Of a DNA stretch of 64,000 nt, positions 17,301-62,687 are shown piece by piece. Position numbers and translations under genes: made by a program. Origin of the DNA: Styela clava. Its lineage: Eukaryota. The DNA is taken from assembly GCF_964204865.1 (NCBI RefSeq), contig NC_135259.1, positions 16,926,001 to 16,990,000 on the forward strand. Direction: 5' to 3'. The stretch's first letter is position 1; each line of letters opens with the position of its first letter. The notes under the pieces are model-generated. The model was not told where the DNA came from and made no database searches. It saw nothing but the letters and a program-made list of their open reading frames with translations.

Positions 17301-18229
17301 TTAAGTTGAGAAAGCTCTCGACTTTTAAGTTTGTTATTTTTCACTTCTTGTTGATATTTTCTCAAAGCACGATTTCTTTTCGCTTCATTCTCTTTTAAGA
17401 AACGATCAAACTTTGTAACTCTTTCTTTAATTTTTTGTTGTTTCATTTTCAAAGCTTCCTCCTTAGCTTTGCAGACCTTCAATAATAAAAATGTAACAAC
17501 TATTAGGTTTCACTGGTCAATCCTCATTCTCAACTTTCCATAGATTTGAATTTATAATAATAGTAAAACAAATAGATTTCATAATGAGTTTTAAACCTGA
17601 CATTCTGTAATTCTTCCCTGCAATAACGATACCCATTTTAAACCCAGTTAACCAAGCTTATATCAAAAAATTTAAAATTTATCAATTAGGGCATATCTAA
17701 TTTATTACGCTACTCATAAATGAAAATGGTATTTGGTCAAATACAGATGATGTTCGGACTAGATGGTGGAGGAAGCCTAACCAACCAGCAGTTACGCAAA
17801 GAGTCGAGCAATCCTCTCACAAATATTATACTCTACTGGATTCAAACTGTGAGATCATGCAGGAAAATCAAAGTTACATGGCATGCGTATTCCTAACACT
17901 TACTATCGAGCGATTGGTTTTTGTAATTGAATCTGAAATTGAAGGACATGAAAACTAACCTCCATCCTTTGACGGAATTCTTCTCTTTTTTCCGCAAGTT
18001 CACGATCGACATGTTCAACATCAACTGCTTGTCGAAGCAATGAAGTGCTCTGTAGTGTGTTAATCCCAGATTGCAGTAACTTATCCGCTGAATCTTTGAC
18101 AATCGGAAATCGCCGAATATCGTCATTTTCCGACCTATCATTCAACTGCGTAACAAACACATTTTCTTTCTGCGGTTGAAGATCTAGATGATATTGGCTA
18201 CTGCTACTCGCAGCAGCAGTGATAGGCAT
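14386..18229 (-). CDS. CCDC197: DUF4200 coiled-coil protein, CCDC197-like (CCDC42/CFAP73 family), 417 aa; exons 18229-17960, 17476-17253, 16236-16099, 15007-14386
   Basis: GT-AG exons join in frame (1254 nt). KFDRFLKENEAKRNRALRKY is the DUF4200 core; NVFVTQL, SGINTLQ and YESYLMRVIDILPE resemble the CCDC197 subfamily as I recall it. Confidence 0.8.
15397..15900 (-). mobile_element. Three stacked degenerate SINE 3' fragments in CCDC197 intron 3
   Basis: Repeated ggatttacatattta(t)c...ggaaag matching the reverse complement of the SINE tail at 34300-34347. Confidence 0.6.
16690..17217. mobile_element. MITE with 9-bp TSD (MULE/Merlin-like)
   Basis: Termini ggtgaccgtacatttgaa...ttcgaatgtaatggaacc; TSD gaaaaaaga; same family as 32229-32402. 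Confidence 0.75.
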
Positions 18230-18787
18230 TGTTTTGATTAAACTAAACCTGTGTATGCTGAATCTGAATTAAAAGTAATAACCTGATTTTTTATAACTTA
18301 AAATACACAAATCATATTAGCTTGATACAGGGTCCAAAACTTCTAGACAAAACCCTTAGACAATCTGTCAAAATATTGAGATAAGCAAACATTCATTCAT
18401 TTTGTCGAAGTGAAAGTTTCCGAGAATACCGGTACTTCAAGACCGAGGAAACGTGAACCTGGTGGCGTTGAAACTACATTGCATCAGAATTGGCCAAAAG
18501 CAATCTGCATAATCCTGTTATCTGAGAATTGAAGTAGACTACGTACCGTAGAGGGTACCTACCCGGTACTCTGTCAGTTTCTCAGTCAGCCAGTGATAAG
18601 TGCTGTAGCACGCCATGCTTTGGTAAAATTTTTCAGTGGTTCAAAACTTTCTAGGAATATTTAGCATTTTTCCATTAGTTTCTAGTGTATTTTATTTGTT
18701 TAATGACTAAAAGACAGGGTTTTCAAAATAAACTAGAGCTACCTGTCAAAGGCGAATCTCTCAGAGCTGACGCTGTGACGACACGTC

Positions 18788-22341: not shown

Positions 22342-25300
22342 TCACTGTATGCTGCAACTTTCAGTGGCGGTTGAAACTTTTTCTTGTAACTCGCCAAACG
22401 CTTTCTCGGCTTGATTTAATAAAGCTGAAAAAAAAAAGTATATTTAAAAATAGTTATGTGCTAACACTGATTTTGATTACAGAAATTGTAGATTTTGTTG
22501 TGTATTTCCTTCTTCATGATAAAACGTACGGTATGTCTCATTCCTAAAGCGATAAGCGAAGTTTCTTGCTTATGTATGGTTGTACATTTTCCGCCAAATA
22601 TGGACATCTGTTTGATTTGGGCCCCCATAGTGATAAGTAATTTAAACTGTTAAAAATAACTTCTATTAGAGCATTAAAGTGAGAGACCTAGTTTGGTACT
22701 CAGAATAGTCAGTTGACGGCATTTTGAAAAATTCAGCTGGATTGCAGCAGTAGTCTTTCATTATTTAACATTGCAATTTTACTACGATAGAATAGTTTGA
22801 AATGTTTTCATCAAATTTGAGTGCAGTGGCGTATCTAGGGTATGGCATCAATGGCTCGTGCCATGGGCGCCGTTTGGATAAGGAGCGAAATGTTTTATTA
22901 GTAAAATGTTTCCATAAAATATTTTAAACGGCAAATGGCCACATTTTCTAAACTTTGTCATGGGCGCCATTTAACGTAGATACGCCACTGTTTGAGTGGC
23001 ATATGTTATGTTCTAAAGTTTAGCGCGAAATGATTTTTTGCAAAGTGCTTTGTATATTTTATAAAAATAATAGTTAAAAAAAACATTGCAAAATAACATT
23101 AAATGTATTCATACTTTCTTCTTCTGGTTCTGCGGTAGAATCTCCTTCTTGTGGAATTGATTTATTTCTCGTTAATCTTCCCGCCGTCTCTCTTTCTCTC
23201 GCTGCTGCTTCTTCCGCTTCGATTTGATCTTTTCTTTTCAAACCATACTAAATTAAGATAAATTTGTTATATTTTGTAATTTTAATAACCTCTTTTATAA
23301 TCATCACTGGTACAAGGAAAATTGGAGGAGAGTTTTCATGTTTATTCCGAGGAGATATATTCAGAAGGACAACGGCCTCCAGTCCGAACACGAGGGAGAG
23401 TTCCAGATTCATAGACATGTTTGATGAAGGAAGTTGTAGCCGATTACTATTCCGCGGCAAGAAGTCTAAGCCAGAACAAACCCGTTACAGGTAACAAACT
23501 CGAATAAGACGAAAACTTGCTGAGACGTCTAGGGTAATAGGCGCGGCGCGATAAAATCGATATCCGTCAAGAATCGGTTTAATGCTTTGGAAATTATAGG
23601 AAATTGTACGTTTAAGCTGTCAGAGCTATGATATCCTACTTCCTAAATAAATTCTTACTGATTTTTACTCTAAATATGTATTTTCATGTCTTTGGCTGCT
23701 GGCTGTGTATGTTTGTTGCTCAACATAAAAAATGAATTTCGTTTCTGAAATTATTAATTTCAACAAAGCACTTTAGATAATTCGAGTGCAGTTATTAAAA
23801 TTTTTTCGATCATTGATTTCTCAATAATTTCCCGCGAATAAAACATTATCCATCTTTCAAAGACGCGTGAATAAAATTACATCAAAGCACCGAATCGATC
23901 CATCAACTTATTGATTTCTAAGTCAATGTTAGGTCGATTACAGCATATGTTATAATTTCGATCAAAATAATTACATAATGATAAAAAGTGTTGAGTGTTG
24001 TTCGAATACGCGTATATGACTTCATAAATGCAATACAAAATGTATTTTCTTGTATATATATAAAGGATCAACCGAAATAAAAGAATACCAAATAAAGCTT
24101 ATGTGAAGAGTGTTTCATCTGAGTTGGCGCGTGGAACATAACTAAATTGAAGTGGCAGGTTATACTCTCGGCTTTACCCAACCACCCAAGTTGTTACGAA
24201 ATGGGTAGACTATACGCTAATTGAAAAAAATTGTTCGTTTTTTAAGAAAGAATATGGCAGGGCATTACATATTACTAGATGCTCGCGTAGAGCTTTGTTT
24301 ACAGCAAGATTTTGAAAGACCTTGTAAATGTCTGCAATCGGGACCTTGATAGCAGTGCAACAATCAATGTGGTTAAATGTTTTGCTTGCCTTATCTCTTA
24401 TTCTCTGACGTTCAATTTCTCTTTCTTGTTCCACTTTCACATGCTTAGCTTTCCTTTCCGCTTCTTGCTCTTCTAGTGCTTCAAGTTGTTCGCGTTCCGC
24501 TTCCGCTTGTTTTGGATCAACCTCCTTTTTTTCGTCCATAAGTTTGTTAAGATCTTTTGTTGCACCTTGATAAAACGTAAAGAAAGGTGTAATAAAGGGG
24601 GAATATTTAGTGATAACGGTGCCATAACAAAGAATGAACTGGTGATAAGATTTAAATATTTCATTTTGCCATGCATGAAACATTGTTAACAAATAATAAT
24701 AAATAAAATTTACGCAATGATTCGTAATTGACGAGGAGTCGCGAAGGCTACAAGTTCATCTTTTCAGCGACACTTACTCGTATATGCTGAATTACAGCAG
24801 CAGATATAGAAATGAAATTGGGTTTATAACATACGGTACAATGCTAAACAACAATGATAAATTATAAACGAGAATATCGGTCGGAGACCGAAGACTTATC
24901 GATCGAACTTCATGACTCTATAGTGACACCGCGTGTCCCATCACTAATTAATTAATAACTCGCTAATTATACTACATAATTCATCCAAAATCAATAGGCT
25001 TATGGTCCGAGATTTGATGAATGCACATTCGCTCGCTTGGAGCAGATTCAACCTTGCCTTCGTGAGATACCGCGTTCATCTAACAGACAAACAGACAAAT
25101 ACCTATCAACATACTTACCAATCTTAAGATCGAGTATAGAAAGTAATACAACCCTTCTTGTTATAAGAAAAGTCTAATTAGGTAAAAGTTGCATCAACTA
25201 ATACCGATATAATGCAAATTAAATAACGTTTTTACTGAGATAACGATTACTGATCCGAACATAAACATATTGTATACCGGTATACATGATTAAATAAATA

Positions 25301-42420: not shown

Positions 42421-43826
42421 TTAGCACAACCCCTCGAAATCTGTATCAGAGGATTTTACAAAGTACCTCGCCATTGTATCAGAATAATATTCATCCTCTT
42501 TCGACTTGTTTTCAAAATACTTCTTTGCTTTATAGTAAATGTAGAGAAAAAAGAATGGAAATCTGTCAAAAAAGAATTTCCAGAATTCCTCGATTGTCTG
42601 GTCAAATGAGCCTTCTCCCTTGTCTTCGTGATTATGGGTATGTCTATTACGAATAAATCTGAGAAGTTCAGTCACGGTAAATCCAAACTTTTTTGCTTTT
42701 GTCTTCATAGCATCTTTTTGTACCACAACGGAAACCTTTTTTTCTGTATATCTACTTTGGATTTCGTTCAGTTCATCGTCAGTAAACATCAAGTCTTTTT
42801 CCTCCCATTTCTTTAAGTCTGATTTCACGTTATGTGCATACATGTCATCTGATTGAACGTCATCTAAAAATAAATGGGGAGCATCATTTCCATTTTTCTT
42901 GTCGTCAGAATTTTTCCTTTCATTTATTTTTTTCAAAAGTTCCATTCCTTTCATGACATCTCCATAGAACTCTAGTCTACGCTGATCAGACCAGAAGAAC
43001 GGATGCCCAAGAACTTCGATCATTGTAGGTCGAGTTTTAGGATCTCTTTGTAGCATACTTGCAATCAAATCAATGGCAATGTTGCTGTCTGGGGTTTCAT
43101 AAAGTGTTTGTAACGACATTCCAGTGTCATCTTCAATGTATGCTTGCCAACAATGAGGCCTTTTTCCAAAAGGATGCTTTCCATTCGTGAGTATGTAAAA
43201 CATAACTAAACCTGCTGAAAAAACATCAGCATAAATTGATGTAACCGCTTCATCGCCAGATGTTTCTGGAGCTCGCCAGCCGTCAGTACCAACATTAGGC
43301 CTGCTTGCTAAAGTGTTTGATTTACCATGGTCAAGACGTTTGCTAAGCCCAAAATCTGATATCACAACGATGCCATCTTTATATAAAATATTTTGAGGCT
43401 TTAAATCACGATGAAGAATGTGGCGTCCATGTATATGCCTCAACCCTTCTGCCATTCCCTTTACATCAAACTTTCGTTTTGCATAACTGACAATTCTAGT
43501 TTTGATTTTGTCCCAAACACTCTCAGATTCACACTCTTCCATGGCTATATAGATACATTCCTCATAATCAAAGGTAATATCGTCTGATCCAAAATATGTA
43601 ACAACATTTGGATGTCTACTTGCATTTCTCATGTTGTCCACTTCCCTCTTATACAATGCTATGTCACCCAATATTTGAGATTTTCCTACTATTTTAACTA
43701 CAATGTTTTCATCATTTTCCCCTGCAGCTTTCCGACGAGCTCTAAATACTCTTGACCCTTTTCGGATTTGCTCACATCGCTTGAAAGTTATCTCACCATG
43801 TTCAATCGTAATCACACCAGTTGATT
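42421..43826 (-). CDS. Terminal exon: IRE1-like kinase 2 plus KEN endoribonuclease domain
   Basis: VVK, HPNVVTYF, HRDLKPQNIL, ISDFGLSKRL, GTDGWRAPE, GKHPFG, HPFFWSDQRRLEF, ELLRFIRNRHTH, FFDRFPFFFLYIY. Confidence 0.92.
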
Positions 43827-46800
43827 CTGAATTAAAATGAAAATCTAGATCAGGGGTTTCCAAACCAGGGGTCGCGACCCCAAATTGGGTTGGAGTGATA
43901 AGTAGGTAGGGTCGCAAACAGGTCATGGGGTCGCTGAGGTATGGTAAGAGGATGGATGTACAAAACATCTAAGATTTGACAAACCTTGTTAAATTCAGCA
44001 GTTTGTACCATGGCTTACTGTAAAAGAGGCCCATATGCATCGCTCTATGCTTATGCTATGCTTATGCTATAAGAAATGTAGGTGATTATTGTGATTATTG
44101 TTATTGATTATAGACCACAACATGACCAAACTCAAAAGTGCTGTGAAAGAAGCTCTAATAAAGTTTCATGAAAAATATATATATTAACCTGGAGTCGCAC
44201 TGGACACTTGGAAGTTGTCTTTGGGGTCGTTCTGAAAAAAACTTGGGAACCACTGATCTAGAACCACTCATCTGGGAACCACTGGCGCGGCGGTGTGGCT
44301 CAACGGGCTAAGCGTTAGGAATACGCTCGCCACCGCACCGCAATTACTCTGCGTGGGTTCGCAGGCTCGAATCCCATGCAGGGATGGTTATGTGCGAGAG
44401 GATTGCTGGACTCCTCGCCGTCGTTGGGTGGTTCACGTAACCGCTGGTCGGTTACGGCGTCCTCCACCACCAAGTCCATGCTTCCGAAAACAAACAATAT
44501 AACTAATCCCATACCCGACTTGGTTGGAATGGTAACCGGACGAGAGGCCGTGGTTCGCCATCTGGATAAGCCATCTTATCGGCTTTCCTCTCCCCCGGGA
44601 TAAATGTGTAAATCCTAGATGAATGTACTTGCTGCTGTAATATCCTGAGTGAGCAATGTCACATTCTCGAAGAATTTTTTTTTTTTCAAATCATTAGATG
44701 CCATTGCTTGATAAATAGATTTGGTTTCCTGTGGCTACCCTTCCACAGTGAAATTCAGTGTTCCAATTTTTCTTGTATTTTCATATGCATCACTTTTTAA
44801 TTATTGACAATAAAAAAAAACACTACGATGGAGAGGCTGATACCTATCTATAATGAGAATTTTTAAAAAGAAGTGAAAACATTTTTGTACATCCCAAATT
44901 GTACAAAAGGACGAAAATTTAAATATTGATGTGTGGTGATAAGAAATTTCGGTGCTCCCGAAGTATGCGAACCAAGATGGCGGACATCGGAAGGTAACAT
45001 GGGTAACAGGTTAGGGTTAGGCCATAATTTTTTTCCAATTTTCCTTATTTTAGTCCTATTATCAGTTCGAAGACAAGCCAAGAGCCTCCCGTAGTATTTA
45101 TACCTAAAATTATGGCCTAACCCTAACCTAGTACACATATTACATTCTGATGTCCGCCATCTTGGTTCGCATACTTTGGGAGCCCCAAAATTTCCTTCAG
45201 AACAGCGAACTCATCAAGTTTCACTATTAATTTAGTTCATAAGATTATCCAAAATCTGGATATATAATAATTAATAACCTTCAATCACCAAATATTTATT
45301 GCAATAACAACATATAACTCACCATTAGCAGGGTCAGAATGAGTCGAAGGAGAATCTTTTTCATTACATGACATTGTATTTCTCTGAGACTGTTTTTTTG
45401 CAGAATTGGCATCTACGAAAAAAAGTCAGTGATAAAATTCAGGATGCAAAAGAAATAATTATCACAGGAGGTAATTAAAACGGGAGAACGATGGTCTAGC
45501 AATTGAAGCGTTAAACTCAACTTAGTTGGCATCGTACATTACACCTTACAGGTACAAATTCCACATGACCCAGGGTGCAATAAATTGAGTAGGCAATGTT
45601 AAACTGGAATGCTTTTGGTCCCATTTGATTCTTTAAAAAATATCAGCCTACTTCTTGATATATTGTGAGATAAAACTGGCTATCTGCAAACTGCAAAGTA
45701 CCTTATTCTGAGCGAAAAAGGTGAGAAAGCGTATAAAAAGAAAATACATCTAAATTTTCTGTAAGTTTGACATTCAATCTCAAATAATCTCAGATTAAAA
45801 CAAAGCTTGATACAAATGCTTCATGCGTCCAAGATGGGTCATTTAAAAATTAAGCAATTACAATTTCATCCTAAATTTGAATGACAGGAATGAAGATTCC
45901 GTCAAATAGTCTCAGTGGGATATTGATTGATCCAGGAGTCTAAACATTAATACTTCGACCAACTGTATTCAGTTCGAAGAAATGAATGGCATAAGACTAT
46001 CACCAAAGTATAGCAGACAGTAGCTATTAAATTTAAAATATTGCATAACTTTACAAAAACAAAAATTTGTCTTACCCATGACAGAAATACTCTTCCAGTC
46101 ACTCATTTTTCCATATCCTGCTTTATTGTAAGCCACAATTCTTGCACTGTAATTATGGCCTGTTTTTGGACCATCAATCGTAAATCTACAAGTGCTGGAT
46201 TTTTCATCTATAATTTTTTCCTGCGCAATTCTCCACTGAATTTCATATCCATCAGGTTCAATATCAAGTGGATCCCATTCATAAACAATATTTTTCTTAT
46301 CGTCGAACCTTGTCTTAATGTTACAAACTTTGTCTGGAACTGCAGATAAAAAATAGAATATTCATGAACAAAATGTAATTAAATTGGCAACAGATTCCAT
46401 ATTGGACGTGATCGAGACTTGTAAAATTCTTTAGATTTTCTATTAGTACCATACTTTTAGCATAACATAGGTAAAAATTTATAATACACAAAATTAATAT
46501 TTAAATTTTTATCAATGAATTTTAAACTCACAGGTACTAACATAACCGTCAGTCAATGCCTCTTTACTACATGTTTCTCCAACTAAAGCCTTTATTTTAA
46601 TTTTATATGATTCCCCAGGTGTTAGATTTTTCAGTGTGGCATAATGCTCATCTGTTTTCATGCGTGTTACTTCTTCAGAATTCCTCAGAGGTTCCGCTAA
46701 AACTTCATAAGTTTTCTTAATATTTGAGTGATCTTCAAATTCCACACATAGCCCATTTATTTCTTTCTTTGGCAAAACTCTGATATTGTGTGGTGCATAT

Positions 46801-49800
46801 GGTTCTGAAAATATAAAGTCTAGATTAGATCAAGGGAGGCCATAGACAATAATCGCAAGATAATAATCAGCCAGTGAATTGTCACCCATTGCACAGTGTC
46901 TCACTCATGACTGGTTGACTACTCCCATAATTGTACCTGGGTTGGAAACCGGTTGGGAGGCAAAAACAAGATTAAGCCTTGCAGAAAATATGTGTGAAAT
47001 GTCTGATGCTTTTATTCAGCCTATTATACCATGATATGCTGTGGGTCGGTTGGCAAGACAAGAATGTTGGGCATGGTTCACCCAAACTGGGGTCCGGGGA
47101 TCCCTGGGGGTCTGTGATGACTGCACAGGGGGGTCGCAACAATATGAAAAGATTTGATTATGTTTAGTATTTGATTTGCAGTAAAAAAGCCATTGCATCT
47201 CTCGGGTTTAGCGTTGCGGTGAATATCCACTGCTGTCAGATTTCAAAATTGTATTGCTTTTTGCAACGATCTACATCTGTGACTGTGTGAGGAAGCATTA
47301 TCGGCTACCAATACGACAAAATACAGGTCAATCTTGCCGTAGTGCCAACTTACAAACTCGCTTGGCACAAATTGCTCCAAAAATTGATGTTGTGGAGTGA
47401 AAAGCAATCTCATCCATCACAATAATGTTGTTTAATTATCCTTCCTCAATGGTTAGGCCCAGTAATTTATGCGGCATAGAATGAGGGTCTGTCAAAGATA
47501 AGATCCACAAACAGGGGTTCGCAACCCAAAAAATTTGGGAAACTCTTTATCAGGCGATAGGAATAAACTCTGATCATCCTGTGTAGGTTTTCAGACTCAA
47601 ATCCCTTGGAAGACAAGTATGTGCGAAGATTACTGGATTGTGTGGTTCATGTTACAGTTTCCTCCTCCATCAAATCTACAAATCTGGATTATCTCCATAT
47701 AACTGGCTAACTAATCCCATATCTAACATAGATCATCAACAACATATCTAGTCTTGAAATACAAAAATCACCAAATGGGCAAAATATAAAGTATGCGAGA
47801 GTCTGATCTAACTTACTCATTATCATTTGCTTTGTATTGTGATTCAGGTCAAAGACGGAGTTGTAGCCACAATACTGTCTGATTGTATATGTGTTCCCTG
47901 GAACGCCACTTTTGAAGACAAAGTTGTTATTTGTTGGAAAATATTCACTGACAAAGCCATTCTGATTATTTTCAATCTGAAGTTTGAAACAATCAACACC
48001 AGTTGGTTTTTCCCAAGTCATATATGCACATTTAGAAGGATTAGTATCATCAGGGATAATTGCGAAAAATGATGATTTCATTCCACCTACAAAATAAAAT
48101 ATACATTAAAAAATAGGAATTTTGATAAAAAGGTTGCATTTGTTAATTTTTTAAGTTTCAACTTTTCCAGCTGGAGCCTATTAAACATTATATTATCAGT
48201 TCATTTTGTTAGGCCACACACATCAAGCTACACCCTTTATAAGTAATACTTTCTTTCGTAGTTCTTTAAAATTAGGTGAATTTGAATGATATAGATCTTT
48301 TATAACAGACCCTAATTTTATTTCATATAAAACCATAGTTTTGACAGGATTGGGTCAAAAATCCAGTCTTCTTATTTCACCAGATTTCTGCCTCATTTTT
48401 ACTGAAAAATCGTTATTACAGTTCTTCAACTAGTTCTATTTATCTTATATTACAATAATTATCTCCTTAATGTATTATATTTTTTTCACAATACCTATAT
48501 TATAATACTTGTTTTATGACAGTACTGAGGCAGAAATAGCATATTAGAAGCATGTTAAAATCAAGTAGAATTTTCATTGATACACCAAGATCCTAATTTG
48601 TCTTAATTTTAGAACTAACTTGAAATTGAAAAATCGCGTGTGGCAAAAAAGTTTTCAATCATTAGATGTTTTATGTAAAATTGGTTTATTTGCTAATGAA
48701 AATAAGACAAATAAAAGGATATAGTTGGCAGTTAAATACAGACATATCACTCGTACTAGTTTATGGCAACATTTATATTTGAAATTTTATCAACTTTTCT
48801 TTCCTGATAATTCAAGTTTTAAAAAAGTACGGGGAATATTGAATATTATTACTTCGTTAAAAACACTTCCGTACCTATTCGGTAGTATTTGGATGTAGCA
48901 GTTTTTCCAGTTCCACCTGCGTTGAAAGCAGCGACACTGCAGTGAAGCATCGTTCCAGGCTCTAATCTTTCTCCAAAGCTAAAATTTGTTCTGTTTGTTT
49001 CATCTGTTTTAATAACTGACTCTCCTTTGTACAATGCGATCCTGTATCCATCTGGCTTCGCTTCCAATGGCTTCCAGTTTATTTCAAAAAATTTCACAGG
49101 ATGTTGATATTGATCTTCTATCAATTCTACTTTTAATGGTGCTGAAAATAAAATTAATCAAATGATGTAAACCGAAACAAATTAGGATTTAAAATAATTT
49201 CAAAATATTGAAGTGATGTAATAAAGTCTAAATGACATTATTCAAAAATAAGTAAGTTTTCAAAGGACAACATGATGTTTCTTTAGTTGGGATTAAAAAT
49301 AAATAACAGGTCCAGGATCAAAAAACAAATATCCCCATAACTATCCTTTAGGAATTTGATTAGAAATAAAAAAACAGTAAAAACTAGAGCAGTGGTTCCC
49401 AACCTGGGGGTCGCGATCCCCGGCGGGTTTCTAGGGGGTCGCGAGGGTCTTGCAAAACAGTAGAAAATATTAATAATAACTTTAGGTTAAATATTGTCAA
49501 TAGAACGCGAAGAAGTCTGGAATGAACTCTCGTCTTCCTCCGAGAGATATCCACTAGCTTCGCGAGACCCCAGAATATTGCTTCTTGCTTGAAAAACAAA
49601 AAAGACGCGCAAGAAGTTTATGGCATGTTAACCATTGTGACGTCACACAAACTCATCTACATTTCGGCGCTCCGAAATGCGGAAAACACACAGGCCTCTA
49701 AGCAATGCTGTTGAACGCCTTTATTTCGATCCCACGCGGTTTACTGCAGGGTAGGCTTGTAGTTTATGTTGTTTCATTATCATACATCCTGCAGTAACGT

Positions 49801-52800
49801 TATAATTACGTTATTTTATTTACCATGACTAAGAAGCGACAATATTAAAATGAAGTTATGAAATATGTAAGCGGCTTTTCAGCTCTTCCTCATATAAAAA
49901 CAAGGGCACGAAATCAAATGAAAGCCGAGGATGATATGAGATTAGCTTTGTCAAAAACTAAACCACGAATTACGCAGTTGGCTACGCGGTTTCAATGCCA
50001 ACCGTCACATTCAGTAAAACTGCAGGTTGATGAAAAATCAAATTACACAATATTCACTTTGCCAAGTGCAGATTCAAGTATTTTGTGGCGTCCGAAGCTG
50101 CCATAAAACCGTGGTGGGATCTCCAAACCATGGCCGCTATAGCGAAACCCATGGCGACCGACTTTTTAACTGCCACAAACCAATGGCGAGATGCCGTTAC
50201 CACAGCAGCAAATTGAAAACCAAAGGCGGGTGAAATTTTGCTGCCGTAACCACAGCATGTCGGCTGTAACAGCAGGGCTGCCCCTGATGGAGATGAATAT
50301 TGGGTAAGTTGGAACATTTTTCTAATGGATACAGTTTTGGTGGATTTGGGATTAGGTCTGTCAGTATAAATAATTCCGCATGATAAACTAAAATCTGGTA
50401 CACGACTTTGTGAATATACCGGTAGTAGCGTCGTAACCACGGCAAGAGCTGCCATTGGTTTGTTCGTGGCAGGAGCTGCCATGAATTGGTACGAACTGCG
50501 CCTCCACTTTGCCGCTAATTTTATTGATAAGTATAGAAAGCGAGGCAGGGGTCGCGAGGCATGTGTAAACTACCAAAGGGGGTCGCAAGCCAAAAAAGGT
50601 TGGGAACCCTTGCACTAGAGCAATAAGTGCAATGTGCAAAACTTTACCTAGGATGACATCACAATGATGTGACCATTCTCCTCTAATATTGCAACGAATG
50701 CTTCGAACCATCACCATATATTTGCTTCCAGGATATCGACATATATACTCGCAATTTGTTGCAGAAGATTTTAATATATTTTCGGTTGTTTTTTTATCAG
50801 CACAATAAATCTGAACTTCATATTCTTCACATCTTTGTTGAGGTATCCACGATATATGTATGGCAGAACTTGAATTTTCTTCATCCATAACAACTCTTGG
50901 AGTTGCAGTTTTTGCTGGCCCTATTTGAAAAAATGTATATGTCGTTATTACTTTCTTTACAAAGACAAACTATATACTCTCCTATGAAGTTAAATGTTCA
51001 TTTGCCATAATAAGTACATTATGAACTACAGAGGATTTTCATTGTGCTAAACATTCAGAAAACCCCTGTCCTCCTTTAGTTGATAATTGGTCATGTCTGG
51101 TACTATAAACTTTATACCATAAAGCTTCATACACTATCCAAGCCCTTAAATGTAGAACGAATAACTGGTTAACTCTTGCTATACCCAAACTGGATAAGCA
51201 ACTAAATGGGCGGACCTGATATGTTTTTTGACATAAGATTTCCAAGATAAAAAAAAATTCTATCATGGTGAAAATGATATATGAAACAAATATTCCAAGA
51301 ATACTCAATTGAAAGAGCAGTGTTTATTACCTTTTTGAAAGTTCATCAATTACAACAATTTTTATGTAGATGAATTTAGCCAGACATATTACGATATGTT
51401 TGTATTTAACACAGTATTTTGTAATAGTTTTAGTGAGAATAGTACAGGGCCGTTGAAGTATATGAAAGATGGCCAAAATATCTGATAAATCATAGGCGGA
51501 TGCAACAATATTCTTAGGAGCATCTGAGGCGGTTAAGAGCATCGGGAGACAAAGAGATAATGTAAAAGTAATTGAAATGACGTATAAGTGCCGATATTGA
51601 TTGCTAATTTCAGTCAAGGTATGTAAATACCAGAATATTGTATAAAGGTCAAATTCAATTTATATGAAGCTATGCAATTGTTACATATATGTGAAAATGC
51701 AAAAAATATCACATCTCACTAATATTAAACTGAGTACAAGATTTATTCTTTGCTTCAAATCAAAGTGCTGAATATAATTTCAATGATTAGAAAAATCAAC
51801 TACTTAAAGCACTTCAAGATAGTGTTAATTACAGCATTGAACAAAAAGTTTAATTACATATTTAAGTAATAATTTTTTTAAATGTCAAACATGATAATAA
51901 AATTGCGGATGGTCAAATTACTCACTTGATATAACAGTTTCAGAAATGGAAGCTTTCCCTCTCACTTTTCCTGAATTTTCACCCCACATTATAAAGTGAT
52001 ATTTTTCTGCAGGTACTTTCGGATTGAATTTAATCTCGACCACCTTTTTATCTGTGTTACTATGACCTTCAAGTGGGTGACCCTCCAATAACCCATTGCA
52101 ATATGCCTGCACAAAATAGAACGGGCAATCCCTTTCAGCAATACCACATTGGACCATAATGTAATTTCCTTTTTCTTCCAAACTCGCAGTGATATTCTGT
52201 AATTTAGATGGTGCTGCAATAAAAAAGTTATTATATTATTAGGAATGTTATATCGCTACAAGATTTTAGACTTATATACGCTATATCAGTGGTCGGCAAC
52301 CTTTTTCAAGTGACGGACCGGTAAAGCTTGACCAAGTTTTTGGCGGACCCCCATTATACAAACGAACTAAGCCTATGCAATAAATTATACGCATTAGGAA
52401 ACTGTTCCCATATTCGAGATTTGGTCGACATTGACACACGTAACGTGTTTCTTACTTCCAGCCTATTTCAATATTTTGTTTTTGTAGTTATCAATATTGA
52501 AAACTAGGCCTCATTAAGATTTCGGGAAAGTTACCAATGCCTGTATCGTTTTGTTGGGGATATCTTAGTCGGGCTGATGAGAGACATTTTTATACGGGCG
52601 TAGAAAAACAATTGACCCAGCATTATTGCGACATACTGACATGGCAATTGTTTATGAAATCAGACATGTTGCTCAACAGTGTTATGCATTGGTCGGCAAA
52701 CTTCATGTACTTGCGGGCCAAATATAAACATTTCTGGTAGCGTGCGGGCCGCAATATTTCCGCCTTCGAACAATCGCTACCATAATTAAACTTCAAATTA

Positions 52801-55800
52801 TGACGCATTTGCATATTGCATTGCTACCCTTCTAATGCTGTGTTGAAAACCTGTCCAAATGAGATGTATATGTGGCATTTTTTTTATTATCAAACGATAC
52901 ATTATTTTTATGTACTTAATATCAATGTGAAAGATGATATTTTTATGGCAAATCGTCGTCTAAATGATGATGTGACAAGCGAGTACGAAATTTCATCTAA
53001 GAGTAATGCATTTTAGATAAAGCTGCTCGAGGCCTTATGTTCTTCCCAAAGTGCACATTACACAATTTGCACTGTCGCACAGATGAGCTGAGGCGCAGTA
53101 CCGGGTCTCGGGGTCGAATTTTCGACGACTCGCTTCGTAACGAGTTCAACATCAAAACCCTAAACAGCTGCGATGCTGACTGGGCATATCGAGCAAACCG
53201 GTTTGGAATGTGCAAGAAAGAAAAATATTTTTCCATTCAAGCGCTTTGGAATGTTCGACCCGCGTCGCTCTGTTTTCCAGACATTTTCAAGTTTTAGAAA
53301 TCAAAATGAACTCGAACGACATACAACTGACGCTACTTGTTACATAGGAAGCGCCGTACAGCAGCACTTGTCACCACATATAACCGTGTAGAGACAATAA
53401 TAAATTTGAGATTAACTTTTGTTTTATTTATTAAATGTCGGGTCGTTCAAGGGCCGCAACAAATTAGCTCGCGGGCAGAATTTTTTCCGACCCCTGGTGT
53501 TGTGTTTGTCTGGTTTACTGTTGGGTGCTGTTTTTTAGTCGTAGGGTTTGTGATTAGATTGTAGAATTGTAGAGGTTTTATTACGGCATTGTCCCTTTTT
53601 GTTGCACCTCTCTGCGGACCGGCAGTAACCTTTCCGCGGACCGGCGATGGGCCGCGGCCCGGTGGTTGCCGACCACTGTGCTATATAATATACTAATATA
53701 ATATATGTTATGTTATTAGGCCCAGTGCAACAAATGCACAGTCTGGCCACATATCTATTACGATATTTTGTAGAGCAGTATTTTTTAGGAAACTTAGGTA
53801 TACTAAGCAATTCAAGAGTCCTGCAGTGCTGCTTGTCCAAGAGAGTATGGCTTTGGTCGGACAAATTGTTACAAAATACATTTGTGTTATTGCGCAGTAG
53901 GACTCTTGAATTGCATAGTATAGTCGTATTTATTGTTGCTACAGTATCCTTGCATTTTTCGCATGCGGATCCACTACCATAACGACATAGAGCAGGGGTG
54001 GGCAAATTACGGCCCACGGGCGGGATCCGGCCCACCGGAATGTTTCATTCGGCCCACTTGTGATTGCTGAAATTATGACTATAGATTTTATAAATAGAAA
54101 TTTCCGTTAAAAATATCGATGATGTAAATTGAAATTCCATTGAAAATACCGATAACGGATCGTCGGCTAAAGTAAATACGATAATTCCTCACATATTATA
54201 AGCACCTAAATATTATGTGCCAACTCATTCAACAACTCTAGCTCCTGATATATCAGCGTTTGTGCCTGTAAATTTTTTGTGAAATCTAAAAAACCTTTTT
54301 TTCCAGTTTTGAGCTTTTCAATCTCAATTTCCATTTTCCTCTTTTCTTCTTGCATCCACTTCATTTCCTTTTCGTGCTCTCTCCGCATTCTCTCAACATC
54401 CCTCTTTTCTTGTTCATTTTCCAATTTTATCTGCTTTATTCTTTCTTCAAACTCTTCTTTGACTTTTACAACTTCCTTCTCTGGAGCGCTTCGTACTACA
54501 GAACCTAAAAGTAATGGTTTCATTTAGACAGAATAATAAAAACCACAGAGCAAAATTATTTGAATAAACGAAGCAAAAGTGTTTCTGAATGTTATATAAA
54601 GCAAAAATCTTGGGTATTATCACAATATGTCAGGTATGATTTAAGCTAGGCTTTGGGAAAAATATGAAATCTAGATTTTATTAAATGATAATTTCATACA
54701 AAAGTCTTGCAATAAACTTTGTTTCTGACAGAGTTCAAGATTTTTTACCAAGGTGGAATATACAGTGTTCAACCAATTATCCAGATTTTTGATTAAAGAA
54801 ATATTTCGTTAAAAACTATAGAACCTTTCTACTTACCCAGTTTGGGATGAGGGCAAACAAGTTGGCCACGAAAGTATTTATGTTTCCGAATTTGTTCTGT
54901 ATCAGGACGATCCTGTGGTTTCAATGCGAGCATCCAACCAACCAAATCCTCCAGATCCCCTTCTAGTTTGCTCAGGTCACATCCTTGATATCGTTTTATA
55001 TTGAAATTCCAACTATCAGGGTCATTACCGAATGGGTGGGAACCATCGGTCGAAATGAAATGGATTACGAGTGCGGAAGAAAATATGTCCGAATGTTTAG
55101 AACAATAGTCAGAAAGGTATATTTCCGGGGCCCTCCAACCATCAGTGCCAACACGTAGAGTGCTCATTTTGGTTACAAAATGTCCTTTTCTTAACTGTTT
55201 TCCCAAACCAAAGTCAATTATTTTGAGAATTCTCCCATTGTCCGATACCAAGATATTATCTGGTTTGAGGTCACGATGCAGAACTTCATTCATGTGAATA
55301 TGATCGACAGCTTCAACAAATTGTTCTATTTGTTTATGTTTGACTTCGTCAGTCTTAAGCTTTGGATCGTCTTTGACAAAGTCTGTCAAGGTTTTAGATT
55401 TAAAGTATTCCATTGCGATGAATAAATATTCTGTCGGACCAAAGAAATAAGTCCCAGATTGGAGGACAGTTATCACATTTGGGTGGGAACGAAGCTTTCG
55501 GATGATTTCCACTTCTTTCCTATTTTCATCGCTGAGTTTGATAGATTTTATGGCGATTAAATCGAATCCTCGAGAACCTTTATGAGTCTGCAAGCCCCTG
55601 TAAACTTCGCCATACTTTGCTAGTCTTTCATTATAAAGCAGGAACAGGTTATGATCGACGCGAATTGAATCTGTAAAACATAAAATAGTAGGTCTTTGGT
55701 AGATAATTTGATATGTGTGTGAAACACAAATATAGAACACATATTTACAAATCTAGTATATTTGTACATCTAATCCAGGGGTCCGCAACTACGGGGTCGC

Positions 55801-58800
55801 AACCCAAATTTCGCTCTGGGTCGCGAAACAATTTAAATTTTTCATAAATATGGGCATCGCGTCTGTGTAGCGTATTTATGTATAACAACTTTATAAATCT
55901 CTGATTATAATTATGGATGTTTCCTCGAATATACACTTTCTTATTTACTGCCGTAACATTGGTCAATCAGCATAAGTGCAAAATTGAAGTAACAATAAAC
56001 GTTTCAGAAGCGCTCAGATACTTTTGCCATTGGTTGTGTATATTATCTCGTTTTGGCGGTTTTCGGGTGTTGTTTGTTAGTTTTTGGTTGTTTTGGTAAA
56101 TATAAGTCCTAATCAAATATTTCAATAATCATTTTGCTCTGTCGAAGTTTTATTTTAAATGAAGTAATAAAAAATTAATCTAGAAGTAGCTGTGATAGAC
56201 TAGGCCAAACTTTTCTACCGGCACATTTAAATGAAAGGTTGTTGAATGTATTGAATTAAAATGATAGTTTGAAACATATAAACCGGTTTATAGGCGCGAA
56301 CTCGCAAAACCAATATTGAAATAAGAACCAATAATTTTGCAATGGTAGAGTATAAAGCGGAATAATTTTGTCGAGATCGAAAATCGGGAAAACATTCATT
56401 ACGCAGATGTTTGCATTGTTAATTGGTATTATCCTACTACGTAGGTGGACAATTGTATTGTTTAGTAGCAATGCAAGGTTAGCAGTAGTCTTGTGGAATT
56501 GCTTGATAAAGACAGATGATGAGATTTGTCCATTCTAAATTAAATAGTTAGGTTTCTGTTACATTTGTTATTGTAAGATATTCTTGCTTGAATTCAAAAT
56601 TTAGTGGGGTTGAGGATTTTGAAGGTAGTTTTAGTCACAAATAATGTTGACAAACTGGTTACTGATGAATACTGAAGTAAAAGTCGCGAGCGGAAGATAC
56701 AACGGAGAAATTAAGTGAGAACAGAACACCGCATGCACCTTCAGAAATCTTTGCGTCTTCAAGCAGTGGGGATCAATGCCCGACAAAAGACTTATCTCCT
56801 CACCCTCATCGGATAGAAATACATCACTCAAACCATTCTTATAAGCGGAAGTACAGTGTAGAATTTATAAAGCTTGGTTTCACGTGTATTCTTATAAATG
56901 ATGAGTCACGTCCTCAATGTGTTGTTTGTTCCGGTGTTCTTGCCAACGAGAGCCTGAAAGCAGTGAGATTGAAACGACATCTCACAGCAAAGCCTCCAGA
57001 ATTCATTGACAAACTAATACATTTTTCCACCGATCAGAAAAAGAATTTTTAGGCGAAAAGAAAACAATGACAAAATATATCACAATTTTAGAATATCTCA
57101 AAAGATATTGTATGAAGTGGCTTATTTAATCGCAAAAGATAAAAAACCACACACCATTGGAGAAACACTGATCAAATCTATTGCAATTAGTCAAATTATA
57201 ACTGGAGACAAGGTAACTAAGGATATGAAAGAAATACCAATGTCTGTAGATACCATTCGCCCGACGTATCAGCGGAATGGAATGGGTCAATATATTAGGT
57301 GCCAACTGATTGATAGAGTCAAAGAAGGAAAATACCCTTTGCAATTGGATGAATCCACGGATACGTCTAGTTTAGCGCAGTTGATTGTGTTCGTTAGGTA
57401 TATAGCCAATGGGAAGCTTGAAGAGGTACTCATGTGCGTGACGCTTTCTGGAACATGCACTGGTCAAGACATATTCTCAGCAGTGGCGACGAGACTACAG
57501 AATGATGGATTATCTTGGGAGCGGTGTATTAGCATTTGTACTAATAGGGCTGGGGCCATGGCGGGAAAACAAAGGTTTTTTAGCAAGAGTATTACAAATT
57601 GGGCCTCATATCAATTTTACGCATTGCATTCTTAATAGGGAAAATCTGGCTAGCAAAACATTGGACCAATAATTAGAATTGAAGATTGCATATGATGGCA
57701 AAAGAAGTTTGGCTGAATTTTGGATTTCAGTAGCAAAAGAATATCCGGAATTAACAGCTGCTGCAATGAACGTATTGCTGCCATTCGAAACTACCTACTT
57801 ATGTGAAAAGATTTTTCCTGCGTTTTCATACATAAAAAACAAATACAGATTAAGGCTAAATTAAAAGAAGATCTTCGAGTTGCTGTCTCCCAAATTAAAC
57901 CACGAATTGATAAGTTGTGTTGAAAACGCAAAGCTAATAATTCGCATTAGTCATAATGAAAGCTATTATTCACGAATTTATGTGATGAGTTTCATATAAT
58001 TTTGTGCAAGAAAATTGCTAGTGTCAATAATAGTCTTAAAATCATAACTAATTACATGTTTATCAAATGCTTGGGTCGCGAGAAATTAAAAAAAAAAATT
58101 TATGGTCGCGCTAAAAAGCAGTTGCGGACCCCTGATCCAATCCACTGCTTGTCTAACGACTCATTTAGCGAAAATAACCTTGAGAAGGTAAATCATATCC
58201 ATATCAGCTATTAAGGATGGGCAATGCAGAATAATTTGCTATTCTAGAACAGTGCTCCGCAACCGGTGTGCCGCGAGACGATGCCTCTACTAAGGTAAAG
58301 TTAACCTGCTTTTACGTTGGCTTGAGCAACACCAATTCAAATTCATGAATCCCCCACTGTGCATTTGTGACGTAACAAGTGGTAGGCCTATATGTCAAGC
58401 TGATATATTGTAAAAAAAACACTTAACTTTTACGAAACAAATGGATCCGAAATCCTTTCTCAACTAGAGCTGAAATGTCAGGGAAAGACTTACCCCTGCG
58501 TATTCGAGAAAACTTCTTTGAAGTAAGAAATGACAGAACGCTAAGATTGAAATTCAGCGAAATTCCACTTGATGTGTTTTGGATTTCAATAAAAGAAGAA
58601 TATTGGCACATTTCCAATGCAGCTATTGAAATATTGTTCCAGTTTTGCACAACTTACGTGCGAACGAAGCTTTTCCTCTTTATACTAATCAAAAACGATA
58701 AAGGATCCTGCATAAAAGATGTTGACAACGAACTTCGAGTTGCTCTTTCACATATTGATCCTAATATAGAGCGATTGTGCTCATTAAAACAACCACAAAT

Positions 58801-61800
58801 CTCTCATTGAAATATGAACATAAAACAAAGTTACTTTGTTTTTTTTCGTTTGTTCTGGTGTGCCGTCGAATTTGGCAAGTTTTATAAGTGTGCCGCAAAT
58901 TAAAAAAGGTTGCGAAGCACTTTTCTAGAATATTCTAGAATAGTTCAATCGAATCCAGAATACCGAATCCTATTCTCTTTTCATACTTATTCAAATAGTG
59001 GGAATTTTCCTGATTGCTGGATTTAGATGTCAAAAAATTATAAATGTATTACTATAAATGTATCATTTATTTGGAAATGTCCTCAACATTGGATTTGATT
59101 TAATACTAAACTTTGATACTAAACAGGCATTTCCCAGGACAATAAAATCTAAGAATATTACAATATTTTTGCTTTCAATTGTTCCAAATGTATGTAATCT
59201 CTAAATACTGATATGCTATATTAAGACACGCTTCAAACACTTTAATAGTAAGCGGTTAAATACAAAAATAGATATGAAACGGCATTAAATCATTATTAAT
59301 GTTAGAGTGCCGAGGGTACTAAAACACGCACGCTGAGAATTAGATGCAGGACCAGCGTGTGGCCACTGCAACCTATGCGACCAGTGTAAAATATTAAATT
59401 TAACCACTATCAATTAAGATCAACTCTTTATTCTGTACGATCAAGACGTGCAAAACAAGGTTCCAGTAAACGCGATTTCGTAGTTAGTTATTAGTTAATA
59501 TCATCTAAAGACGAATTCATTTAGTATTATTATCAATACATATCATTATCTACCCAGACTTGGTCCTACTCAAACTCAATATGTAACTATTTTCGCCAGA
59601 TGTGGCATCTTTTTTTAAATTCATCGGCAAATAAAATTACTACAGACACTCGATCAAACGTGCGTCTATCTTGAACGATAGAAACGGACCAAAAGATAAT
59701 CTTTTGAGAGTGAAATTTAAATGCGACAGATCGTCGTGTTTTGCGATATAACTTTGTATTTCGGAAACTGGTGTAATAAAAGTAATAAAATTATTCCTAA
59801 ATAATATTTGATATAAATTAATCGCAAGTAATGTCATAACATTTCATGCCTGGATTTTGGTTTACATGCATCATTTTCTGGGGAAAACTCACCGGTCGCG
59901 GAAAATCATTTACAGTAATGTAAAATGAAGCAAGGCACGCCTGTAAATAATTGAAGATTGTTGCAATCAGATTATCGGAATATCGCCAGTAAGTCGGCAC
60001 AAATAATTATTATTATTAAACCCTAGCTAGATAGCAAAGCAGGAAAACGCAAAAAATGATGCAATAGCGAGTCTTCGTCCTAAGGTGTACTTCACGAATA
60101 CGTCGATTCAGATTACAGTGTTTGATGTTTACCGATTAGGCAAGTTTGATTAAACGAGAGAAATCTCCATGCGAGAAAGAACGCTCGTCTTTAATTGATA
60201 AATTAGAAACCTGAAATACAAAAATTGATGCACGCCGAAAAAGCAAAAATGGTGCAACAACGAGTCTTCGCCATGAGATGTACTTCGCCGACTTCCTGTC
60301 CAGAATAAGCCGATTGAGATTACAGTGTTTGAAGTTAACCGATTTTACGGGTCCTTTCCGAGCAGACGCAAGTCTATTTAAACGAGAGAGATTTCCACGC
60401 GAGAAAAACGCTAGTCTTTAATTGATATTTAGAAAACCGAAATGCAAAAATCGACGCATGGCGCTGGAGAGGCCGAAACCGAATCCTGTTGGATTCGGAT
60501 ACTTTGGGATTCGCATCCTCCGGATTCGGTATTCTATATTGCCCATCCCTATCAGCTATATAAAAAACAATGTATAAAAGACAAAACGAGAATATCGGTT
60601 GGAAACCGAAGACTTATCGATCGATAGTTAGGGGATCCCCCAAAACAGAAACTGCAGTTTCGATTCATCCGCTCTTGTAACTTGCGCACTGCGCATCGCA
60701 CACACACACTCGGCGGGTTTCAAAATTCTCTCGCTTTACAAAAATCTAGATCACTATATCAATAATTGATTGATAACTCGCTAATTATACGACATAATTC
60801 GCCCAAAATCAATAGGCTTCTGGTCCGAGATAAGATGAATGCACATGCAAAATCTGGAGCAGATTCAATCTCGCTTTCGTGAGATATCGCGTGCATCTAA
60901 CAGACACACACACAGACAGACATACATACAGACAAAGACCTATCAATATACTTACCGATCTTAAGATCGATAAGTAATAATTACAATTTATCATTTAGTG
61001 TGGGTAGCACCTGCGAAGGCTGCGATTCATGCTTTTGTAGTGCCGGGCAAATTGCGTCATCCAGTGCAGTGCACTCTACTTCCCAATTACTGTAAATATG
61101 AAGACAATTAGAATACAATTTGCTTTTAAATTTATTGCGGTGATCGCCATTCCTTTCATATCGGCAGTAATTTATTTTCCCTTGTCGCGCCGCAATGGAC
61201 TGTCTTAGATTACGATAATACATGAAATATAATAATCGAAAAATGTTTTCAATTAAAACGTAGATGGAGGGGGGCGCTAAGATGCGTGGGCGATATTCGA
61301 TATTAATATACTCACTAAAAATGATATTCTGAAGGTAGGGAATAACGATATTGAATATTAAATCAAATTGAACATCCCTGGCTGTGATAGGTGCATTTGC
61401 CCCTATACGATTTGTAGGGTTGGCCCTTATGCAAGGATACACGGTAACTACGTTGGCATTGACTTGAACAGAGCCATGCTTGAAATAAAATGTTTCAAAA
61501 ACACTGTAAAATAAAAACTTAGCTTACCTTCGAAATGAAATGGTATTTCTCCTTTTGTTTCATTTTCTGCTGCATCATTAGACTTTGTTGCCTTTTTCTT
61601 AGTTGTTGAAGGTTTTTCATATGTATTGCTGCTTCGATCAATCGTAAAACCAGAACTTCCAGCAATACTGGTTTCTATATTGTCCCCTGTTGAGATAAAG
61701 CACAATAGTCAGAATGGTATTTATTATTCATAGTTATAGTTAAAAAGTGAAGCTGAAACATGCCATTATTGTACAAGAAAAATTAACTGTCCCGATCCCA

Positions 61801-62687
61801 AGTATTACTACCCTGTGGTAAACTCAAAGTAAATTTATTTATATGAATCAAAAATGCTATAAAAAGCCGATCTTGCCGACCCCCTAAGAGCGGCCCTAAA
61901 CAGTGAATTTATAAAAATTCGCGCATAAGCTGACCCTAACAAATCGGAACACTTATCATCATCACACATACTTTTGACACAGCTAATTTTTATTATAAGT
62001 TATGATTGGTGATCCTCAGCGCCAGTTTAATTTAGTTCATCGACATCGTAAGCTAAGTTCCGCCACAATTATACCTCAGCACAGGTATTAAGTGTTGTGC
62101 TACCACTGGAATTAAATTAAATTTTGCTCATGAAACTATGCGTTATTTCAAAAAACGCAAATGTTATAACGATCATCGTTACAAAAATTCACTCCATTTT
62201 CATAAGAGAGAGAATGCATTATAAGTTGGAATAGATGTATGAAATTGTAACCTAATTGTAAAGAAAATTTATTTAAACCACAATATAATTTCATTTATTT
62301 ACCTCGAATAAGTTAAAAATGTGATTTATGTAATACTGACAAAAACAAACATTTTCCTTTATAGGCTATATGAATAAACTAGATCCAATAATTGACCTTT
62401 CGGAGAACAGAACAAAACGACAATCTCTGGCAGAACTTATTCTCACCTTCATTAATGGTTTGCTTGAAAACGAATGTTGGAGCTACCACAGTTTCAAGTT
62501 TTTCTGAATGCTCTATGAGATTTTGAAGAAAATTTCTACCAAATTCTTGTACCGTCCCAGGCATAGATGACAACGATACTTGTAATGCATTTCGAACTGA
62601 AGTTTGATCGTTTGCATATGAAAATTCTGTAGATTCATCTGAGGAATCGGCAGAATCGATTTCTCGTATTTTACCAGATTCAGCCAT
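42421..62687 (-). CDS. Tandem IRE1/RNase L-like kinase with coiled coil, 6 FN3 domains and C-terminal KEN RNase (~1524 aa); exons 62687-62447, 61686-61528, 55670-54837, 54504-54295, 52213-51926, 50920-50648, 49141-48875, 48086-47817, 46804-46532, 46339-46076, 45412-45323, 43826-42421
   Basis: 12 AG/GT-bounded exons, all introns phase 1, 4575 nt open to TAA, in-frame stop just upstream of the ATG. The donor after 54295 (GTTTTT) is the weakest junction. Confidence 0.8.
43851..44255. mobile_element. hAT (Buster-type) MITE just upstream of the terminal-exon acceptor
   Basis: caggggtttccaaac...ttgggaaccactg; TSD atctagat/atctagaa. Confidence 0.8.
44284..44617 (+). mobile_element. tRNA-derived SINE, copy C
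   Basis: Same family as 34017 and 35659. Confidence 0.85.
44951..45186. mobile_element. Palindromic MITE with internal TTAGGG motifs
   Basis: TIR ggtgctcccgaagtatgcgaaccaagatggcggacatc; TSD gaaatttc/aaaatttc. Confidence 0.85.
46076..52213 (-). CDS. Six single-exon fibronectin type III domains of the kinase-KEN gene
   Basis: Six 264-288-nt phase-1/1 exons, each opening with xP or similar; B-strand W in four (ISW, INW, MTW, YEW); PG/TG-x-x-Y motifs (YPGSKY, VPGNTY, LTPGESY, KTGHNY); A(F/Y)N..G.G ends. Confidence 0.85.
49390..50612 (+). mobile_element. Internally deleted hAT (Buster/Charlie) element
   Basis: TIR cagtggttcccaacc/ggttgggaacccttg; TSD aactagag/cactagag; transposase C-terminus GFSALPHIKTRARNQMKAEDDMRLALS...QPSH. 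Confidence 0.85.
52287..53678. mobile_element. Non-autonomous hAT element containing a nested hAT at 52687-53496
   Basis: Outer TIR cagtggtcggcaacc/ggttgccgaccactg, TSD cgctatat/tgctatat; inner TSD gtgttatg/gtgttgtg. Confidence 0.8.
54837..55670 (-). CDS. Exon 3: IRE1-like kinase 1 (no KEN domain)
   Basis: IAIK, KEVE, HPNVI, HRDLKPDNIL, IIDFGLGK, GTDGWRAPE, DIFS, GSHPFG, RP...HKYF. Confidence 0.92.
55776..58134 (+). mobile_element. Decayed hAT Buster/Charlie transposon (ZBED8/SCAND3-like transposase pseudogene)
   Basis: TIR caggggtccgcaac/gttgcggacccctg; TSD atctaatc/atccaatc; fragments PQCVVC...LANES, KPHTIGE, QLDESTD, TTYLCE with frameshifts. Confidence 0.9.
58212..60551. mobile_element. 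Non-autonomous hAT-type element hosting a nested insertion
   Basis: TIR taaggatgggcaat/attgcccatcccta; perfect TSD tcagctat; internal ~200-bp tandem duplication at ~60040-60455. Confidence 0.85.
58250..58922 (+). mobile_element. Nested Buster-type hAT deletion derivative
   Basis: TIR cagtgctccgcaacc/ggttgcgaagcact; TSD ttctagaa; ORF 58475-58810 is a transposase C-terminus (FWISIKEEY...LRVALS...QISH). Confidence 0.85.
60584..60978. mobile_element. HINE/DINE-like element
   Basis: acttatcgatc...gatcgataagt subterminal IR and cagacacacacacagacagac microsatellite; second copy at 24865. Confidence 0.5.

Follow-up and report, generated by a model that had tools for sequence, protein, structure and literature searches.

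Can a KEN domain with phenylalanine in the position of its catalytic tyrosine still cut RNA, and does the protein around it belong with IRE1, with RNase L or with neither? These questions are raised by a gene in a 64,000-nucleotide stretch of Styela clava DNA (NC_135259.1, positions 16,926,001 to 16,990,000; hereafter the window). A 12-exon model on the reverse strand translates exactly to NCBI LOC144428262, a protein of 1,524 amino acids (Table 1). From the N-terminus it consists of a low-complexity segment, a protein kinase (kinase 1), a predicted coiled coil, six FN3-type repeats (four of which pass Pfam), a second kinase (kinase 2) and the KEN domain. All 11 introns are phase 1. Because exons 12-11-10 and exons 8-7-6 are each joined in intron-less contigs, obtained from four presumed-RNA runs in two studies, we can establish that the portion coding for FN3 repeats, kinase 2 and KEN is spliced. 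Among the contig pieces listed, none joins exon 4 to exon 5, that is, kinase 1 to the FN3 array; repeats mask most rows here. Left unspliced, exon 4 reads through to its own stop at ~54206. No membrane helix was found in LOC144428262, where the best window scores 1.66 (inside a kinase) as compared to 2.14 in an IRE1 control, and neither ankyrin repeats nor an IRE1 luminal family are among the 15 Pfam matches at E up to 1.

Table 1. Exons, domains and active-site residues of LOC144428262 (positions in the window, residue numbers in the 1,524-residue protein).
Feature	Position	Strand	Basis or remark
Exon 1, start codon	62447..62687	-	without signal peptide-like stretch
Exon 2, low-complexity segment	61528..61686	-	
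Exon 3, kinase 1	54837..55670	-	14 copies on C5 at 92-95% DNA identity
Exon 4, predicted coiled coil	54295..54504	-	weak donor GTTTTT
Exon 5, FN3-like repeat 1	51926..52213	-	87.5% identical to a repeat in an FN3 array 0.6 Mb off
Exon 6, FN3-like repeat 2	50648..50920	-	
Exon 7, FN3-3	48875..49141	-	Pfam, contigs
Exon 8, FN3-like repeat 4	47817..48086	-	contigs; no Pfam match alone
Exon 9, FN3-5	46532..46804	-	Pfam, contigs
Exon 10, FN3-6	46076..46339	-	Pfam, contigs
Exon 11, linker	45323..45412	-	90-letter spacer in one contig
Exon 12, kinase 2, KEN and stop	42421..43826	-	linked to exons 11 and 10 by contigs
Kinase 2	42994..43824	-	Lys1101, helix-C Glu1118, HRD, DFG and APE intact
KEN (HEPN-type RNase) domain, ~aa 1335-1524	42424..42993	-	PF06479, 35 bits; fold match to Ire1 and RNase L
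Lys/Asn/Asp-rich loop	42844..42933	-	part of ~40-residue insert after first KEN helix
Phe1437, codon TTT, catalytic Tyr position	42687-42685	-	alignment
Arg1449	42651-42649	-	phosphate-binding pair with Asn1450 by homology (role from PMC3149027)
Asn1450	42648-42646	-	phosphate-binding pair with Arg1449 by homology
His1454	42636-42634	-	equivalent of the essential catalytic His

Several other features lie in the window. A short motif in exon 2 (61528-61686, -), which we take to resemble the RHIM amyloid motif, gets no Pfam match. Just upstream of the acceptor of the last exon, positions 43850-44618 hold two elements of very high copy number, one a tRNA-like SINE, the other MITE-like and with terminal inverted repeats. 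Two broken transposase-like frames, of the hAT type by eye, are found at 56681-58807 (+) and 11867-12283 (+), the latter with a weak Dimer_Tnp_hAT match. Further away are three similar C-type lectin exons in tandem (953-9912, +), two of them with Lectin_C matches, a DUF4200 coiled-coil gene (14389-18268, -) and a synaphin/complexin exon (24213-24755, -).

The last exon is an open frame that encodes kinase 2 and the KEN domain and closes with a stop codon at 42421. Pfam identifies a protein kinase (144 bits) and Ribonuc_2-5A (PF06479), the latter at 35 bits against a cut-off of 23.3. An AlphaFold2 model of the kinase-KEN portion (pLDDT 87.6) most resembles Ire1 (3fbv; Z 30.9, rmsd 3.0, 379 residues aligned by VIA-align), which likewise comes first in Foldseek; RNase L is not among the matches listed for this two-domain model. 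A model of the KEN domain alone (pLDDT 75.4), compared with 48,161 chains, retrieves yeast Ire1 (Z 11.0, rmsd 3.6, 135 aligned) followed by RNase L (Z 6.9, rmsd 3.5, 121 aligned). An earlier note on this DNA had proposed both a structure comparison and a search with a KEN profile, and both return a match, with Ire1 and RNase L as the two best folds. A homodimer prediction for kinase 2-KEN scored 0.00, which we count neither way.

The peptide quoted in that note is encoded at 42690-42625 (-), and most of what was read from it stands. Arg1449, Asn1450 and His1454 of the motif R-N-x-x-x-H are all intact, and the sequence R-N-R-H-T-H agrees with the HEPN motif Rx4-6H with a polar residue after Arg, as defined in PMC3710099. 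The position of the catalytic Tyr is indeed occupied by Phe: Phe1437 lies opposite the Tyr of pig RNase L (4O1O) in a gapless 64-residue alignment, and its column contains Tyr in 95 of 97 IRE1-type rows of a 131-row alignment. Since LOC120338340, a protein from an older assembly with 92% identity in the KEN domain, also carries Phe in this slot, we can eliminate the possibility of a sequencing error. The insert rich in Lys, Asn and Asp is real as well, given that 114 residues separate the Trp at the kinase end from the catalytic Arg, as compared to 72-75 in three IRE1 controls. The proposed RNase L-like spacing needs to be divided. Within R-N-x-x-x-H the spacing is identical in IRE1 and RNase L, and the likeness lies instead in the distance from the Tyr slot to Arg, which measures 12 residues rather than 13.

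Is the Phe peculiar to this protein? Pfam KEN matches were obtained for 42 of 46 candidates in the genome and reduced to 35 loci, one of which, with Tyr in the slot and a complete luminal part, is the true IRE1. Scored by a pattern 12 or 13 residues before Arg, the Tyr slot of the other 34 loci contains Tyr (14), Phe (7) or another residue (13). At the same loci Arg is kept in 33 of 34 and Asn in 32 of 34, and His is kept in 25 of the 28 loci with the motif in one exon, a score that leaves out six loci split by an intron. Long hits of the IRE1 type have Tyr at -13 in 115 of 117 cases; the remaining two gave no motif. The slot is thus invariant in IRE1, whereas in this family it varies freely, so that Phe is nothing special. 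The spacing of 12 residues between slot and Arg recurs at 6 of 35 loci and in two proteins from the coral Xenia, and KEN inserts are common, with 90-183 residues in most family rows. The earlier note treated the Phe and the insert as singular; both are family traits across the KEN loci of the genome, and we rejected the idea that either is unique to LOC144428262. In both L002 and P0219, which are its nearest relatives (tree support 96/92), the slot contains Tyr, and in P0219 the spacing is likewise 12 residues; Phe is therefore a derived change.

The family is variable in other respects too. Many members have a decayed kinase (pseudokinase) and still keep Arg, Asn and His, and relatives from other data sets show the same pattern. 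Because some paralogs are broken or have no His (3 of 28), decay does occur in the family. At three loci (L017, L024 and L026) the essential His is replaced by Tyr, and judging from this exchange their KEN domains are likely inactive. The automatic RefSeq models LOC120326396, LOC120338340 and LOC144427274 of Styela clava belong to the same family with FN3, kinase and KEN; LOC120338340 shares the Phe, whereas LOC120326396 and LOC144427274 keep Tyr, and the N-terminal modules differ. There are also kinase-only and kinase-Kelch relatives, and the kinase type of the latter groups with kinase 1 in a quick tree (99). The genome contains a lineage-expanded family of ~34 fast-changing non-IRE1 KEN loci that is distinct from its true IRE1.

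The earlier note described the kinase preceding the KEN domain as having intact HRD and DFG motifs, and both are present in kinase 2. Its glycine loop is shorter by three residues, and the first Gly of the loop is missing. The back-to-back dimer of IRE1 depends on a salt bridge between D620 and R627 and a contact by E621 (PMC7736581); PMC7914947 gives a general dimer model. In kinase 2 these positions are altered to Ser1126, Arg1127 and Thr1133, so the columns of D620 and R627 read Ser and Thr, as compared to Asp in 95 of 97 and Arg in 94 of 97 IRE1-type rows. IRE1-beta also has Arg for E621 and weaker endonuclease activity (PMC8528705). The first KEN helix is without the Ser-Asp-Arg conserved in IRE1. 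Since the salt bridge, E621 and Ser-Asp-Arg are lost and 40 residues are inserted, the dimer surface must differ from that of IRE1 or be absent. By this comparison of residues, dimerisation would have to use another surface or be imposed by clustering from outside.

What the missing hydroxyl group may cost can be estimated from yeast Ire1, where the variant Y1043F reacts ~10-fold more slowly (0.022 vs 0.25 per s) with oligomerisation unaffected, and where H1061N reduces activity at least 3x10^5-fold (PMC3149027). A simulation of human IRE1 describes a slower Tyr-independent path (PMC9472280). Since His, Arg and Asn are kept in LOC144428262 and Y1043F retains ~10% of the rate, the KEN domain likely still cuts RNA, only more slowly. 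The suggestion of an active RNase in the earlier note thereby gains backing by analogy with the mild yeast mutant; for the altered specificity suggested alongside it, the Phe provides no support.

We hold it somewhat better than an even bet that the KEN domain provides a membrane-free protein of FN3 repeats, kinase and KEN with a C-terminal RNase that is probably still active, if somewhat slowed, and that this protein is a member of the ~34-locus family with a free Tyr slot. In such a protein, a ligand or stress signal would induce clustering via the FN3 array and, if they are indeed fused to it, via the coiled coil and kinase 1. Nucleotide-bound kinase 2 would then act as the switch that brings two KEN domains together in a back-to-back arrangement. 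Proton transfer would fall to His1454, Arg1449 and Asn1450 would hold the phosphate, and even with the hydroxyl group of Tyr missing the reaction would proceed, roughly ten times more slowly. Bulk or foreign RNA, rather than the XBP1 intron, would be cut with low specificity, and the role would be innate defence or cell suicide. Against this reading speak the lost IRE1 dimer contacts, the shortened glycine loop, the decay seen in the family and the fact that the Death and LRR matches of paralogs stay below the Pfam cut-offs.

We turned to the question as to whether the protein is closer to IRE1 or to RNase L. The earlier note had placed it closer to RNase L, with mixed characters of both. This holds locally: in the 64-residue segment RNase L (4O1O) reaches 20.4 bits and the best IRE1 13.7. 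IRE1 is ahead for the kinase-KEN portion (141 bits, with RNase L missing from the 16 matches at 1e-30), for the 193-aa KEN domain (22.7 vs 18.2 bits), for the family profile (73.5 vs 44.2) and in fold. The mixed character therefore shrinks to the segment, as the larger comparisons favour IRE1, the spacing of 12 recurs at only 6 of 35 loci as well as in the two Xenia proteins, and an ankyrin 2-5A sensor is missing. In the tree, nine family rows stand on one side with support of 99/96 and IRE1 stands on the other. Joining the family with the genome's own IRE1 was rejected (29 rows, LG+G4, p-AU 0.003, although long branches weaken the test), and the quick tree of 57 rows, from which P0216 was dropped for having no HRD match, gives the same split. 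RNase L was absent from the protein-search returns, where the KEN-region search kept 2 of 94 candidates, and is part of neither tree.

With IRE1 (ERN1, yeast Ire1p) LOC144428262 shares the order of kinase and KEN, the best sequence and fold match, the kinase Lys, Glu, HRD and DFG, and the KEN residues Arg, Asn and His. Unlike IRE1, it has an FN3 array instead of signal peptide, luminal sensor and membrane helix, and Phe at -12 instead of Tyr 13 residues before Arg, a spacing shorter by one residue. D620, E621 and R627 are changed with loss of the D620-R627 salt bridge, the KEN domain contains a 40-residue insert, the glycine loop is shortened, and the protein falls outside the group of IRE1 orthologs in trees. 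With vertebrate RNase L it has in common the soluble layout of repeats, kinase and KEN and an active-site segment that aligns without gaps and has the best local score; in this segment the 12-residue spacing agrees and the Tyr does not. RNase L is a pseudokinase with N-terminal ankyrin repeats, whereas LOC144428262 keeps HRD and DFG, has FN3 repeats, has lost the Tyr and gives lower whole-domain scores to RNase L. We file it as a KEN/HEPN protein rather than under IRE1 or RNase L, and activation by 2-5A and splicing of XBP1 are both unlikely.

Three other explanations deserve consideration. The loss of Tyr and of the IRE1 dimer-face residues would also suit a KEN domain that is catalytically dead or very weak and serves as an RNA-binding module or scaffold in a signalling kinase, with Phe as a mark of relaxed selection on catalysis. 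The 20 of 34 loci without Tyr, the 3 of 28 without His and the kinase-only and kinase-Kelch relatives are consistent with this idea. We nevertheless judge it rather unlikely, given that Arg, Asn and His persist here and in nearly all paralogs, even next to decayed kinases, that the two known versions share 92% identity in KEN as compared to 43-68% in FN3 repeats, and that the change from Tyr to Phe is mild in yeast Ire1 (PMC3149027). Far less probable still is a role in the unfolded protein response, in which an IRE1 without sensor would splice the mRNA of XBP1. Such a role would agree with IRE1 as the best whole-domain match and with the intact kinase motifs, but the protein is neither anchored in the membrane nor equipped with a luminal domain, positions near the active site that IRE1 conserves are changed, and a complete IRE1, separated from it by the trees, is encoded elsewhere in the genome.

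The third explanation concerns origin and can be combined with a slowed but active RNase. The family could be the tunicate sister of vertebrate RNase L. The two would descend from a common ancestor with kinase and KEN that was already soluble, and the tunicate proteins would carry FN3 and other modules where RNase L has ankyrins. Consistent with this are the 12-residue spacing without gap, the highest local score, which goes to RNase L, Phe or Tyr as in RNase L where IRE1 has Ala or Val (22 of 24 family rows), solubility, the many pseudokinase members and the rejected grouping with the genome's own IRE1 (p-AU 0.003). Still, IRE1 is ahead on the 193-aa KEN, the family profile and the fold, the spacing is shared by only 6 of 35 loci and by the Xenia proteins, ankyrins are missing, RNase L is in no tree, and long branches weaken the AU test. 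This ancestry seems unlikely to us.

The sequence also bears on how the gene was assembled. Exons 1-4 (54206-62687, -) match stand-alone kinase genes on C5 (2.65-4.43 Mb), a cluster of ~14 near-identical genes with exon 3 at 92-95% DNA identity; by this identity kinase 1 is a recent copy from another chromosome. In the stretches read at 2 of the 14 C5 copies, no FN3 match surrounds the kinase. For the FN3 exons, matches are found in FN3 arrays of greater length at C13:17.44-17.87 Mb. Because of these two sets of matches the locus looks like a recent chimera, in which the kinase 1 fusion is predicted by the gene model. Compared with LOC120338340, KEN is the most conserved part with 92% identity, followed by the two kinase lobes (63% and 84%), whereas three FN3 repeats are 43-68% identical. 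The KEN domain of LOC120338340 maps only to the LOC144428262 locus, and its FN3 repeats fit neighbouring arrays better (82-89%). This observation points to recombination of sensor-side modules, with selection and gene conversion indistinguishable in this comparison.

The company of these modules is suggestive of immunity. One C13 FN3 array has a NACHT-like P-loop exon downstream on the same strand (C13:17.445-17.447 Mb; L084:268-1875, -). This exon has an Atlas score of 0.95 to a cluster that is 99% NACHT, a weak AAA_22 match in Pfam and no match among solved structures. An FN3-NACHT receptor is possible, with the exon join inferred from position. Among the paralogs, P0206 (LOC144427274) begins with a Death-like N-terminus (E 0.014, below the Pfam cut-off) and continues to kinase-KEN, and P0203 (LOC120332033) combines a pseudokinase-KEN with LRR-like repeats, also below cut-off. 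By eye, FN3-like and ZU5-like stretches precede the kinase-KEN of P0206. A search of the genome for OAS gave no match, as was the case in controls.

Expansions of KEN with a predicted defensive endoRNase role are described for Oikopleura dioica and monocots (PMC3710099). The present family resembles them as a tunicate expansion; it differs in that the KEN domains described there stand without kinase, whereas here KEN is attached to a kinase or pseudokinase and to shuffled FN3 and other modules. In light of the family expansion, the shuffling, the variable repeats, the NACHT- and Death-like company and this published prediction, the LOC144428262 family probably has a role in defence. No counterpart of vertebrate RNase L is described from invertebrates: PMC6307210 found none in the lower animals searched, with tunicates absent from its table. 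Our literature search, mostly without subscription journals, found no description of an ascidian soluble kinase-KEN family; the alignment supplement of the HEPN paper may list ascidian members.

A more far-reaching picture, which we offer tentatively and consider somewhat unlikely as a whole, gives sea squirts an arsenal of the RNase L type. It would comprise dozens of soluble RNases gated by their kinases, either sister to RNase L or parallel to it, with sensors that are swapped by phase-1 exon shuffling and held in common with NLR-like NACHT proteins, and LOC144428262 would be a recent three-part chimera of variable FN3 sensor and conserved Tyr-independent nuclease. Tunicates are the closest relatives of vertebrates. 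The Phe itself is ordinary in that it copies a known mild mutant, and more weight lies with the family and its architecture. The natural series of Tyr, Phe, His and other residues in one slot would lend itself to testing what Tyr contributes, and the shuffled soluble kinase-KEN family is material for studying the step from stress sensor to immune RNase.
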